Below are positions 34,696 to 38,808 of a DNA stretch of 39,245 nucleotides, piece by piece. A program made the position numbers and the translations under genes. Each line of letters starts with the position of its first letter. Within the stretch, counting starts at the first letter, position 1. The notes under the pieces were generated by a model. The model saw only the letters and a program-made list of their open reading frames with translations. It had not been told where the DNA came from and did no database searches. This DNA is from Candidatus Helarchaeota archaeon (GTDB lineage: Archaea; Asgardarchaeota; Lokiarchaeia; Helarchaeales; RDOG01): assembly GCA_029838215.1 (NCBI GenBank), contig JALGVI010000019.1:1-39245 (forward strand), in the 5' to 3' direction.

Positions 34696-35151
34696 TCATC
34701 GAATGAGTTGCGCGGCTTTTTTGTAGTCGTATTTCCAATCCGCCGGCAAAACCTTTGTTTTTCGATAATATTTCGATAATCGGTGAATTTTACTTTCTAT
34801 TAGAGTAAGCCCTCGTTTAGAACTCTTATCCTTTTTATTTTCTTCGAGATGCTTGCGGAGGTTCATGGCTTTAACAATTAAATTAGTAAGATCTTCAGGG
34901 ACGGGATGCAGGAGGTCGTTCTCTTTCAGTATTTCGGTAACGCCTTTTTTAGTAATTAGCTTCACGAGAGGAACCCCATATTGATCTCGCAGGATGGTTC
35001 CGATCATTGAAGGCTTGTACCCTTCACGAGCCAATTTAATGACAATATCTTCTGCTTCTTCCTCGGAAACTGTACACCATTCGGGTAAGGTAGCCCTAGG
35101 AGGACGTGTCGAAGAAGATTTTCCTTTTTTTCGATGATGCATTCGTGCCAT
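34696..35151 (-). CDS. rps15: 30S ribosomal protein uS15
   Basis: [55 protein letters not shown]. Confidence 0.97.
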
Positions 35152-35334
35152 GAATCTACCTTCTCTTTTCAAAGGTTTTCTCTTTAATTTAGACTAAGTA
35201 TCATTTTGGATTAGGAATAAAAATATTTTGCTAAAAGGCTTGTAAAATTTTAAGCTCTAGAACTCTAGAACGAGCTTGACTATCATCATTAATTTAATAT
35301 CATTCAGATAAGTTTCGGTTTTAAGTTTTGGCTC

Positions 35335-35898
35335 TTATCGGTTTGTTTCAACATCAAGAAGATTTACCAGCTTTTTTAATGCTTTTTGGCGATGTGAAAC
35401 TTCATTTTTTTCAGATGGAGTCATTTCACCATATGTTTTTTGGCCACTTTCCTCCGGCACGAAGATGGGATCAAAGCCCCATCCAGAACCCCTTATTTCA
35501 AGAGCAATTTTTCCGAATGTTTCTCCAACAACGATTTGCATGTTTTCTCCAGGCTTTAGAAAGGCGATAGCGGATTTGAAACAGGCGGTTCTATCCGTTA
35601 CTTCTTTCATGAGATTTAGAATTCCACGATTACCGATTTTTTTGAACGCGTATGATGAATACGGCCCGGGAAATCCATTTAACGCATTTATGAAAAGCCC
35701 CGCATCTTCAACGAAACACGGTCCGGGAATTTCATTTTTTACCATTTCCAAACTAAATCTCGCAACGGGTTCCAATTCATCGGCTTGAATTTCAACGCGT
35801 TCAATGGGAAATTGTTTGACAATAATTCCATACCTCTTCAAGATTGCACTGACTTCTTGAACCTTGTTAGGATTTCCCGTGCCAAAAAATATTTTCAC
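35335..35898 (-). CDS. rdgB: Non-canonical purine NTP pyrophosphatase (RdgB/HAM1)
   Basis: TGNPNKVQE, EIQAD, EDAGLFINALNGFPGPYS, GWGFDPIF, KNEVSHR. Confidence 0.95.
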   Translation of the reverse strand: MKIFFGTGNPNKVQEVSAILKRYGIIVKQFPIERVEIQADELEPVARFSLEMVKNEIPGPCFVEDAGLFINALNGFPGPYSSYAFKKIGNRGILNLMKEVTDRTACFKSAIAFLKPGENMQIVVGETFGKIALEIRGSGWGFDPIFVPEESGQKTYGEMTPSEKNEVSHRQKALKKLVNLLDVETNR

Positions 35899-36482
35899 GT
35901 TTCGGTTCCTCCGTCTTCAGATTTCTCTTTTTTTCTTCTAAACCTGACTTTATGCTGCTTTGGAAGGTCGATAAAAAGTACATCGTCTTTGTATCCGACA
36001 TCCGCAATGAATGTTTCATCTGCGACCAGTAAAACAATCAAGTCTTCAACTTCGCCTTCATCCATATCAATGATTTCGGCAATTTCTGACGCAAATATCT
36101 TGTTCTTGCCCATGGCAATTTTTCTAATGGCTGCAGAGATGATTCTCTTTTTAGTTTCTAATTCTTCGTCTATTTCGTCATCAAATGACATCCTTTCGAT
36201 TTCAATTATGCGATCCATCTCACCTTTAGACCGCTCTTTTAGAATTGCATTCATTTCATGAAAAATAAAGTAAAGAAAGATTATGGATATGCCCGGAATC
36301 AGTACTAGGCTTACAGCAATAAATATTATTGGATGTACATTAAAGAACATCATCATGTGCAGGACAGGTACAAAGAATAGAATAATAGTAAGAACCATTA
36401 TGATTATTAAAATAGAGGTAAAAAGAAGGTCTTTCTTCCAACCTTCAAAAAATCCTTTTTTTTCCTCCTCATCGCTTGACAT
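35895..36482 (-). CDS. Two-TM membrane protein with C-terminal PCI-like winged helix
   Basis: Two TM helices, then KIFASEIAEIIDMDEGEVEDLIVLLVADETFIADVGYKDDVLFI. Overlaps the bud32 stop (14 nt) and the rdgB start (GTGA). Confidence 0.75.
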   Translation of the reverse strand: MSSDEEEKKGFFEGWKKDLLFTSILIIIMVLTIILFFVPVLHMMMFFNVHPIIFIAVSLVLIPGISIIFLYFIFHEMNAILKERSKGEMDRIIEIERMSFDDEIDEELETKKRIISAAIRKIAMGKNKIFASEIAEIIDMDEGEVEDLIVLLVADETFIADVGYKDDVLFIDLPKQHKVRFRRKKEKSEDGGTET

Positions 36483-37086
36483 ATCGACCACGAGTTTCAA
36501 TTTCTTCGATACGGTTTAAAACTTTTTCGTATTTCGTGCAGTGTCCAGAGTATGCTTTAAGTATTCTTGGAAAGAATTGACCTTCCTGCTTGTAATGAGT
36601 GGAGATTAATGCACGGTGTAATAAATGCAAGTCCACGCCGAAATCTTCAATGTTTCTACTATATTGACCCAACCCAAAATCAATAAAATAGACTAAATTA
36701 TCTTTCAAAATCATGTTTGATGTTGTCAAATCTCCGTGAACAATACCCTTTTTATGAAGTTTCCCTACGGACGCTCCTATTTGGTAACATAAATTGTCCA
36801 AGTCATTTCGACCTACGTTGAATGCTTCTTTCACGCGCGTTCCTTCAATGAATTCCAAAAATAAACTTGAGTTTTTTAAGTCGATAAAATAAACAACAGG
36901 AGTTGGAACTCCGGACTTTCGAGCATCGCTCAAGAGTTTTGCCTCGCGCACGGTTCTCGCTTGCCTGATTTGAAGGTCTAATTCGGGAATTCTGTACTTT
37001 TTCGGAAGACGAACCTTTCGCACGATCGATTTTCCATTCCACGTTTCTTTGTATAGATTGGCTTCGGCCCCTTTTTTAAACAGCAT
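36469..37086 (-). CDS. bud32: KEOPS kinase Bud32
   Basis: KKGAEANLY, KVRLPKKYRIPELD, REAKLL, HGDLTTSNMIL, IDFGL, VDLHLL, RGRY. Confidence 0.95.
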   Translation of the reverse strand: MLFKKGAEANLYKETWNGKSIVRKVRLPKKYRIPELDLQIRQARTVREAKLLSDARKSGVPTPVVYFIDLKNSSLFLEFIEGTRVKEAFNVGRNDLDNLCYQIGASVGKLHKKGIVHGDLTTSNMILKDNLVYFIDFGLGQYSRNIEDFGVDLHLLHRALISTHYKQEGQFFPRILKAYSGHCTKYEKVLNRIEEIETRGRYVKR

Positions 37087-37089
37087 GAT

Positions 37090-38088
37090 TCATTCCGACT
37101 CTCCTTCGTTTATTCGCCAGGGTATTTCGACATCATCCAATCGCCATTTACTATCCACGTGTGAATGCTCGATAGGTGTCGTTATTCCGTGTTGAAACAA
37201 CCGCAGTCCAGTCCAAGCTATCATTGCACCATTGTCTCCTGCGAGCTTCCGAGAAACAACATGGAAGGACACGCCGTGATCGTTAGCAATGGATTCAAGC
37301 ATCTCTTGAAGGCGATGATTTGCTGCAACGCCACCAGTAAGAAGGATGGATTTTTTTTCCGTGTGTGCGAGCGCGCGCTCCGTGACTTCAGCCAACATTG
37401 AAAACGCCACTTCTTGCAGGCTGAAGCAAAGACTTTCCAAATTCTCACCGTTAAACTTGTTTACAGCTGCCGTTAACAGTCCTGAATACGACAAATCCAT
37501 TCCTTTCACGACGTAGGGGAGATGAAGATAAGTTGATGATTTGGCAGCAAGTTTTTCAATTTTAGGACCGCCTGGATGGCCAAACCCGACCTTTCTTGCG
37601 AAAACATCCAACATGTTACCAATGGGAATATCCAGAGTTTCTCCGAAAATGCGATAACGTCCTTCGGCGTGACCTGCCACCAAAGTATTACCGCCCGAAA
37701 CATAAAGCGTTATGGGGTCTTTGGCTCCGCTAACCAAACGACCGATTTCAACATGAGCGAGGCAATGGTTTACACCAATGAGTGGCAATCGCAGGTCAAG
37801 TGCAAGGCTTCGTGCAAGAACGGCAGTACCGCGGAGACAAGGAGGCAAACCCGGACCCTGCGAAAAAGCAATCAAACCCACGTTTTTCAAATCCTGCCCT
37901 GATTGCTTCAAAGCCCTTGCCAAAAGGTTAGAAATTTTCTTAGCATGAAATTCCGCCGCTTCTCTAGGATGTATGCCGCCTGTTTCAGGCACGAATACTT
38001 CACGCACGTTAGCAAGCACGGTTCCATCTTCAGAAACAATGCCGATCCCCAGCGTGTGAGCCGTTCCTTCAATTCCGAGACAAATCAA
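37090..38088 (-). CDS. kae1: KEOPS tRNA threonylcarbamoyltransferase Kae1
   Basis: LGIEGTAHT, GGIHPREAAEFH, SQGPG, VNHCLAHVEIG, YVSGGNT, ETLDI, GGVAAN, DNGAMIAW. Confidence 0.97.
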   Translation of the reverse strand: MICLGIEGTAHTLGIGIVSEDGTVLANVREVFVPETGGIHPREAAEFHAKKISNLLARALKQSGQDLKNVGLIAFSQGPGLPPCLRGTAVLARSLALDLRLPLIGVNHCLAHVEIGRLVSGAKDPITLYVSGGNTLVAGHAEGRYRIFGETLDIPIGNMLDVFARKVGFGHPGGPKIEKLAAKSSTYLHLPYVVKGMDLSYSGLLTAAVNKFNGENLESLCFSLQEVAFSMLAEVTERALAHTEKKSILLTGGVAANHRLQEMLESIANDHGVSFHVVSRKLAGDNGAMIAWTGLRLFQHGITTPIEHSHVDSKWRLDDVEIPWRINEGESE

Positions 38089-38184: not shown

Positions 38185-38808
38185 ATGTCACTTACATTAA
38201 TTAAGAAGTTTCATATTTTCTTTACAAGATGTAAAGGAAGTGGAAAAGTGATAAGACGTGCTTTAAAAGAAATTACAGAATTGAAATACATCATCATGTT
38301 GGGAATTATCGTCTCGGCAATTGCAATTGCTAAATTCATGGTAATCTCGGTATTTGTCGGCATGGATGTTTTAACTCTTTCCAATAGTGCTTTATATCTC
38401 ACGTCGTTTTCACAAGTGAGCGGAATAATGGCACGTCTTAGCATTTATTTAAGAATTTTAATCGTCGGCTTGATTTTTGCTTGGATGATTTCTCTTACCG
38501 TTCTTTTCATGGCAAAGGAAAACTCCATCATCCTTTTCGATTATGCACTGACTAGGCGGCAATTGGCAGTTCTATTAATTATTTTCAGCACACTAAACAT
38601 GATCTTGGGATGGCCTGCTTTTTTTGGAGGAGATATCGTTGGCATCATCACGGGAATATTGTATATTTTTAGATCTTTGGTTTCGGATGATTTCTGGATT
38701 GAAGAAGAAAAGCCTCCAGCACTCGACTACGAAAAGCCTCAAAAAGTGAAAGAGAAACCACGATCGAAGCAGGAAGGCAAGACAACCACATCAAAAAATG
38801 AAATATGA
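38185..38808 (+). CDS. Hypothetical ~4-TM membrane protein
   Basis: Four hydrophobic segments and a charged C-tail. Divergent from kae1. Confidence 0.7.
   Translation: MSLTLIKKFHIFFTRCKGSGKVIRRALKEITELKYIIMLGIIVSAIAIAKFMVISVFVGMDVLTLSNSALYLTSFSQVSGIMARLSIYLRILIVGLIFAWMISLTVLFMAKENSIILFDYALTRRQLAVLLIIFSTLNMILGWPAFFGGDIVGIITGILYIFRSLVSDDFWIEEEKPPALDYEKPQKVKEKPRSKQEGKTTTSKNEI

Follow-up and report, generated by a model that had tools for sequence, protein, structure and literature searches.

Winged helices of the PCI, DDRGK1, and UFL1 type build the proteasome lid, the COP9 signalosome, eIF3, and the UFMylation scaffold of the endoplasmic reticulum (ER) in eukaryotes. Both UFL1 and DDRGK1 have been traced to Asgard archaea, and a function independent of UFM1 was suggested (Picchianti et al. 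2023, PMC10183829). PCI-like winged helices have also been described on membrane-associated archaeal kinases and on ESCRT-linked proteins of Asgards (Makarova et al. 2024, PMC10936438). The expansion of such domains in Asgard archaea bears on the origin of the eukaryotic machines in which they are found. The locus described here also touches on KEOPS, the five archaeal subunits of which are listed in PMC9889334, and on the colocalization in archaea of kae1 with the gene for Ham1, which was remarked upon by Hecker et al. (2007, PMC2094082).

The window, i.e., the whole stretch of 39,245 nucleotides that was analysed, is contig JALGVI010000019.1 of a Candidatus Helarchaeota archaeon (assembly GCA_029838215.1). 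It carries, between bud32 and rdgB, a gene that will be called X, the product of which combines two transmembrane (TM) helices with a single winged helix (wH). An earlier reading of the same letters, below referred to as the original prediction, had described this product as a membrane-anchored PCI-like protein.

Gene X and its distribution

The genes at the locus are the following:

37090..38088, minus strand: kae1, t6A synthase subunit of KEOPS (TIGR03722, 493 bits)
36469..37086, minus strand: bud32, KEOPS kinase/ATPase (TIGR03724, 237 bits), the 3' end of which overlaps the start of X by 14 nt
35895..36482, minus strand: coding sequence of gene X, stop codon included, for a membrane-anchored wH protein of 195 aa (P0001), based on the open reading frame, its translation, and ten orthologs
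35335..35898, minus strand: rdgB/Ham1, XTP/dITP diphosphatase (NF011396, 217 bits), the GTG start of which overlaps the stop of X
34696..35172, minus strand: rps15 (uS15), recognized by PF08069 and PF00312

X starts with an ATG at 36480-36482 on the minus strand and the stop codon of bud32 is located at 36469-36471, which gives the 14-nt overlap. At the other end, the plus strand reads tcac at 35895-35898, corresponding to GTGA on the minus strand, in which the TGA stop codon of X overlaps the GTG start codon of rdgB. Both overlaps had been given in the original prediction and agree with these codon coordinates. The N-termini of the orthologs match the ATG at 36482 and not the upstream TTG at 36500. 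As ten orthologs share the same architecture, X is more than a chance reading frame, and their conservation rules out a spurious one. X is a real gene, and its family is restricted to Helarchaeales.

The orthologs all come from Helarchaeales genomes or metagenomic kin, and the plan of two TM helices, stalk, and wH is kept in every one of them. Six-frame searches of whole genomes revealed a full-length X in each of the seven Helarchaeales genomes searched, in addition to metagenomic contigs; Ca. Helarchaeota LW55_61 and Hel_GB_B are among the carriers of X-bearing loci. An exhaustive HMMER scan of 1.84 billion representative proteins returned no more than four (E ≤ 1e-3), while a word-index homolog search with X returned nothing beyond the query itself. 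Conservation of the gene position across Asgard lineages had been raised as a point to check in the original prediction. The position is indeed kept beyond the genome of the window, in all seven Helarchaeales genomes and the metagenomic contigs, and no full-length X was detected by six-frame searching in 293 other Asgard genomes, where unrelated proteins were matched by the wH part alone.

Some observations were made on the surroundings of X. The listed reading frame of rps15 has a TTG as its start, which precedes by seven codons the ATG (MARMH...) used by the orthologs; to judge from the latter, the true start is probably this internal ATG, at 35151. Divergently from kae1, positions 38185-38808 on the plus strand encode a multi-pass membrane protein of 207 aa with a Lys/Glu-rich tail, which belongs to no Pfam family. 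A scan for sigma-70 promoters yielded 8 sites against a shuffle mean of 8.3 and is not applicable to archaea, and terminator-like sites inside genes were not taken as meaningful.

A membrane hairpin with a charged stalk

Protein X can be divided into five parts:

36342..36431, minus strand: TM helix 1, approximately residues 18-47 (Kyte-Doolittle maximum of 3.1, AF2 helix 5-47, hydrophobic in all orthologs)
36243..36332, minus strand: TM helix 2, approximately residues 51-80, with the invariant Pro63 (Kyte-Doolittle, AF2, alignment)
36171..36242, minus strand: charged stalk helix, approximately residues 81-104, which runs on from TM helix 2 in the model (AF2 helix 51-123)
35967..36170, minus strand: acidic wH, assigned to the PCI/DDRGK1 type, approximately residues 105-172 (PF01399, PDB profile matches, VIA-align)
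35898..35966, minus strand: tail, residues 173-195 (ortholog alignment; pLDDT below 50 from residue 176 onward)

The maximum 19-residue Kyte-Doolittle mean of the two hydrophobic helices amounts to 3.1, and on account of this value a reading of them as a soluble PCI helical repeat was rejected. Matches of the TM region to DUF2207_C, ORMDL, 7tm_7, and Orai were taken as compositional. The AF2 model of X (8 orthologs, mean pLDDT of 73) contains helices at residues 5-47 and 51-123, the wH, and a disordered tail. Within the wH, strands are modelled at residues 128-130, 161-165, and 168-172 and helices at 131-138 and 142-154, the wing being formed by residues 161-172. Pro63 in TM helix 2 is invariant in the eight full-length sequences that were aligned, and the stalk carries a net charge of -3. 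The succession of two TM helices, a charged helix, a wH, and a basic tail, as it had originally been read from the letters, is borne out by hydrophobicity, the AF2 model, and the orthologs. Because the loop between the TM helices is only three residues long, both termini of X should lie on one side of the membrane, presumably the cytoplasmic one.

The tail starts with the motif LPKQHKVRF, continues with a basic run, and ends in an acidic, Ser/Thr-containing stretch. A K-V-x-[FY] motif in the tail is common only to the orthologs of the type found in Helarchaeales family f1, and the ortholog alignment contains no tail at all in families f2 and f3, which make up half the X family. Since the tail differs between the Helarchaeales families, a function of X that depends on it would not be common to the whole family.

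The winged helix of X

With the whole X protein, PCI (PF01399) was the best Pfam match at 19 bits, which is under the cut-off of 22 bits. With the wH sequences on their own, the same family was matched by all ten orthologs at E ≤ 1 and was the top Pfam family in eight of them. The wH of the window's X then reached 21.6 bits against the cut-off of 22 bits, which was exceeded by three orthologs (30, 24.8, and 23.6 bits), the others scoring 18-20.6 bits or less; sub-threshold matches to PF01399 such as these were likewise obtained with 6 of 14 control genomes, from bacteria without PCI complexes. One ortholog scored higher on RPA_C than on PCI. The DDRGK profile (PF09756) gave a weak match in three orthologs (16-18 bits, with 16.1 and 18 bits in two of them; cut-off 27.8 bits) and none with the X protein of the window.

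A profile built from the ten wH segments was compared with all PDB sequences. CSN2 (2.8e-4), DDRGK1 (1.5e-3), and Rpn9 and Rpn3 (approximately 3e-3) all outranked every DNA-binding wH, and the single row above CSN2 was a designed repeat protein that matched over a motif of 19 residues only. An exhaustive structural comparison using VIA-align placed the UFL1/DDRGK1 structures 8c0d (Z of 10.3, rmsd of 7.0, 70 residues) and 8b9x (Z of 9.8, rmsd of 2.2 over 66 residues) and plant CSN2 (Z of 9.4, rmsd of 1.8 over 69 residues) at the top, a lead of just 1-2 Z units over generic winged helices such as those of SelB, Scc1, and PefI (Z of approximately 8.5). Clusters of Rpn6- and CSN2-type PCI proteins were among the rows obtained for X by shape in the ESM Atlas, and a feature search of this atlas yielded scores no higher than 0.83, which can serve as leads at best. 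Foldseek retrieved no PDB match to X at E ≤ 0.001.

The helical-repeat (TPR-like) half of the PCI domain is absent from X: residues 1-104 consist of the two TM helices and the stalk and contain no soluble bundle. X is, therefore, not a complete PCI domain. On the basis of these sequence comparisons, the wH of X is best read as a member of the PCI/DDRGK1/UFL1 class and not as a PCI domain proper. The term PCI-like in the original prediction was apt as far as the best matches of the wH are concerned, in eight of the ten orthologs in Pfam and in the four proteins from the PDB, but it does not extend to a complete PCI domain, and the score of the window's protein stays below the cut-off.

The charge of the wH is of importance for what it may bind. 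It is negative in all ten orthologs, with a net value of -2 to -10 (-10 in the window), and helix 3 of the wH, which reads EVEDLIVLLVADE, is acidic and hydrophobic. These two properties speak for a protein ligand and against DNA as the target. They also weigh against the idea that X is a membrane-tethered regulator with a conventional wHTH domain on DNA or RNA. Such a regulator could be imagined from the many Foldseek and VIA-align rows that represent ArsR/MarR/IdeR-type proteins with similar scores, from weak Pfam matches to HrcA, Rrf2, HTH_24, and MarR in single orthologs, and from the basic tail of the f1-type orthologs. However, the basic/polar recognition helix of MarR- or ArsR-like wHTH proteins is not seen in X, the family matches are scattered, weak, and confined to single orthologs, and PCI was never outranked by a DNA-binding family in the sequence searches. 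Moreover, half of the family does without the basic tail. A role as nucleic acid-binding regulator is, consequently, considered very unlikely.

Insertion of X into an old gene junction

The order kae1-bud32-X-rdgB-rps15 is found in the window, in genome G001, and in the metagenomic contig L039, which specifies an X ortholog with 46 % identity. In the latter two, bud32 and X are separated by 4-7 nt. In all ten loci, X is the immediate upstream neighbor of rdgB on the same strand; the two genes overlap by 4 nt in the f1-type loci and are 11-18 nt apart in families f2 and f3. In these two of the three Helarchaeales families, a gene on the opposite strand lies between bud32 and X:

L003 674-1255 (-), L004 250-807 (-), L011 726-1337 (-), L041 196-852 (-), and L045 2775-3407 (+): Zn-ribbon gene of families f2 and f3

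The helical product of this gene, approximately 185-220 aa in size, has a C-terminal Zn ribbon and is encoded divergently from X. Using it as the query, no such gene was found in the genome of the window. It may have arrived together with X, or family f1 may have lost it.

The history of the junction was revealed by 80 archaeal rdgB loci (L094-L173), which were gathered with the RdgB protein and derive from Thermoproteota, Bathyarchaeia, Nitrososphaeria, Korarchaeia, Baldr- and Odinarchaeota, and three Helarchaeota. In 44 of these, bud32 is located directly upstream of rdgB on the same strand, 17 times with an overlap of exactly 4 nt, and in 14 more a convergent bud32-kae1 pair is present just downstream of rdgB. 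X occurs between bud32 and rdgB only in the three Helarchaeota loci; it is missing from the other 77, including 58 in which bud32 is adjacent. Sister families within the class have rdgB positioned head-to-head with rps15 and lack X. The string (kae1-)bud32-rdgB-rps15 is an ancient and widely kept one in archaea and, as bud32 and rdgB are adjacent in more than half of the loci and X is confined to Helarchaeota, X is an insertion into the old bud32-rdgB junction that took place only in Helarchaeales. The tight coupling of bud32 and rdgB in archaea looks under-discussed.

These data bear directly on the proposal, made in the original prediction, that X lies inside a KEOPS operon and is either a tether or a substrate of Bud32. 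X would then hold t6A synthesis by Kae1-Bud32 at the membrane, or Bud32 would phosphorylate the Ser/Thr-rich tail of X. Such a role would fit the 14-nt overlap with bud32 in the window and the short spacing in G001 and L039, the distance of no more than approximately 1.3 kb between kae1-bud32 and X in every Helarchaeales locus of sufficient length, and the occurrence of PCI-like winged helices on membrane-associated kinases of other archaea (PMC10936438). The adjacency, however, is accounted for by insertion into a junction that already existed. Coupling to both neighbors is to be expected of such an insertion and constitutes, for that reason, weak evidence for a function in KEOPS. In families f2 and f3, bud32 and X are parted by the opposite-strand Zn-ribbon gene and X has no Ser/Thr tail. 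X and KEOPS do not co-occur across archaea: X was found in Helarchaeales only and is absent from every other searched archaeal lineage that has KEOPS. No homology of X to Kae1, Bud32, Cgi121, Pcc1/Pcc2, or Gon7 was detected using Pfam and NCBIfam, and the matches obtained with the PDB profile were to PCI and other winged helices only. A complex prediction with the Bud32 alignment and residues 84-195 of X gave no answer (score of 0.00), which speaks neither for nor against binding. The description of the locus as a KEOPS operon was, thus, overstated, with an ancient bud32-rdgB-rps15 string, an insertion specific for Helarchaeales, and a gene on the opposite strand in two of the three families; none of the findings points to a tether or a substrate of Bud32, and either role is improbable. 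The position of X reflects an insertion into an old string of genes and provides no evidence for a membrane-bound KEOPS.

The invariance of rdgB as the downstream neighbor in ten of ten loci might, in a similar way, be taken to mean that X sites the cleaning of the nucleotide pool by RdgB/Ham1 at the membrane or controls the translation of rdgB by coupling. Yet this adjacency needs no more than a single event, the insertion of X, without a later insertion on that side. RdgB is a soluble housekeeping enzyme that manages without X in all other archaea, and an ITPase partner with a wH domain is not known. A link with RdgB is, therefore, also rated as unlikely.

A possible docking adaptor at the membrane

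The reading favored here is that X is a membrane docking adaptor, in which a hairpin anchor with cytoplasmic termini and a stalk present an acidic, protein-binding wH of the PCI type; its probability is estimated at roughly 0.55. The role is suggested by the type of the domain, its charge, and analogy with related proteins. Following its entry, within Helarchaeales, into the ancient bud32-rdgB(-rps15) junction of archaea, X would be read, in the genome of the window, within a kae1-bud32-X-rdgB run with stop/start overlaps at both of its ends and may well be co-transcribed with these genes. The hairpin would expose both ends of the protein to the cytoplasm, and the charged stalk of approximately 25-40 residues would hold the one acidic wH just under the membrane. 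The wH could bind another protein either edge to edge with a second wH or by gripping a peptide or helix, as do the winged helices of PCI proteins and DDRGK1. In this way, X would keep a protein partner at the membrane.

Interest in X would rise markedly if such a partner, be it a UFL1-like array, KEOPS, or RdgB, were found. With one wH, a membrane hairpin, and a fixed place in a run of housekeeping genes, X is the simplest form encountered here, which makes it tractable for asking what domains of this kind bind.

Related winged-helix proteins in Asgard genomes

Several other proteins with PCI/UFL1/DDRGK-like winged helices were observed. A UFL1-like array of 482 aa with about six of these domains in tandem (G000:C85, L072 1533-2981, minus strand) is encoded in the genome of the window, directly downstream of the gene for arginyl-tRNA synthetase, argS; it matched PF09743 (E3_UFM1_ligase) with 24.4-26.6 bits, over the cut-off of 23.2 bits. 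Two near-identical proteins of 85 aa, G000:C116 (L070 2795-3052, minus strand) and G000:C141 (L071 68-325, plus strand), consist of a charged helix and a wH and scored 23.9 bits with DDRGK and 20.5 bits with PCI. They are the closest paralogs of the soluble part of X in the genome of the window. Their genes are located in near-duplicate contig ends, next to those for a protein of 354 aa and for a membrane protein with a long acidic coiled coil.

Arrays of Zn fingers and winged helices, approximately 800 aa in length, are present in Lokiarchaeial relatives that belong to sister families. In another Asgard lineage, f8/g44 (L013-L038, e.g., L015 1498-1911, minus strand), a conserved family of proteins of approximately 132 aa combines a Zn ribbon at the N-terminus with a PCI-like wH at the C-terminus and gave no match in Pfam. 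Family f10 specifies proteins of 174-197 aa (L021 234-758, plus strand; L029 1303-1896, minus strand) in which hydrophobic helices at the N-terminus are joined to a PCI-like wH (19.2 bits) and possibly a Zn ribbon. The f10 proteins, the genes of which are away from bud32 and rdgB, are an independent design combining a membrane part with a PCI-like wH. Asgard genomes commonly use a wH of the PCI/DDRGK1/UFL1 class as a building block.

Comparison with known systems

The layout of X is the same as that of DDRGK1/UFBP1, which anchors the UFL1 scaffold to the ER membrane (PDB 8c0d, 8b9x, and 8qfc): an N-terminal membrane anchor, then a long charged helix, and finally a PCI-like wH on the cytosolic side. 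X has two TM helices, whereas DDRGK1 has one. Unlike DDRGK1, X carries a single wH and no recognizable C-terminal partial wH that could complement UFL1; all that follows the wH is a disordered tail of approximately 23 residues, which families f2 and f3 do not have. Ufm1 (PF03671) was looked for in the genome of the window, with nothing but noise as the result. Given its restriction to a single order, X is not the ancestor of DDRGK1. It is a long shot that X is a minimal Helarchaeales counterpart of DDRGK1 that recruits to the membrane the UFL1-like array of the genome, or its small DDRGK-like wH proteins, and, by way of these, ribosomes or translation factors. If this were true, the scaffold would have been at work before UFM1 existed, and the placement of X with kae1-bud32, the genes for tRNA modification, and with rps15 would reflect translation at the membrane.

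The best and most consistent sequence match of X, on which the adaptor reading draws, is the wH subdomain of PCI proteins of the proteasome lid, the COP9 signalosome, and eIF3, such as CSN2, Rpn3, Rpn9, Rpn5, and CSN4. Helix 3 is acidic and hydrophobic both in X and in CSN2. In place of the helical-repeat half of the PCI domain, X has its TM helices.

The accessory subunits of KEOPS (Cgi121, Pcc1, Pcc2, and Gon7) are small, as is X, and X is encoded beside kae1-bud32 in the genome of the window, but there is no similarity in sequence or fold between them and X. Moreover, no KEOPS subunit is membrane-bound, unlike X.

The wH of X belongs, by the same comparisons, to the class found in the Asgard multi-wH proteins that have been described as E3-UFM1-ligase/DDRGK/PCI-like (PMC10936438, PMC10183829) and that are expanded in Asgards. 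Those proteins are soluble arrays or fusions, whereas X is a minimal form, in which a membrane hairpin carries just one wH; X also differs from them in forming a family of its own that is restricted to one order and has a fixed place between bud32 and rdgB. In conclusion, X is a new, lineage-restricted variant among the PCI/DDRGK1-like wH proteins of Asgard archaea.
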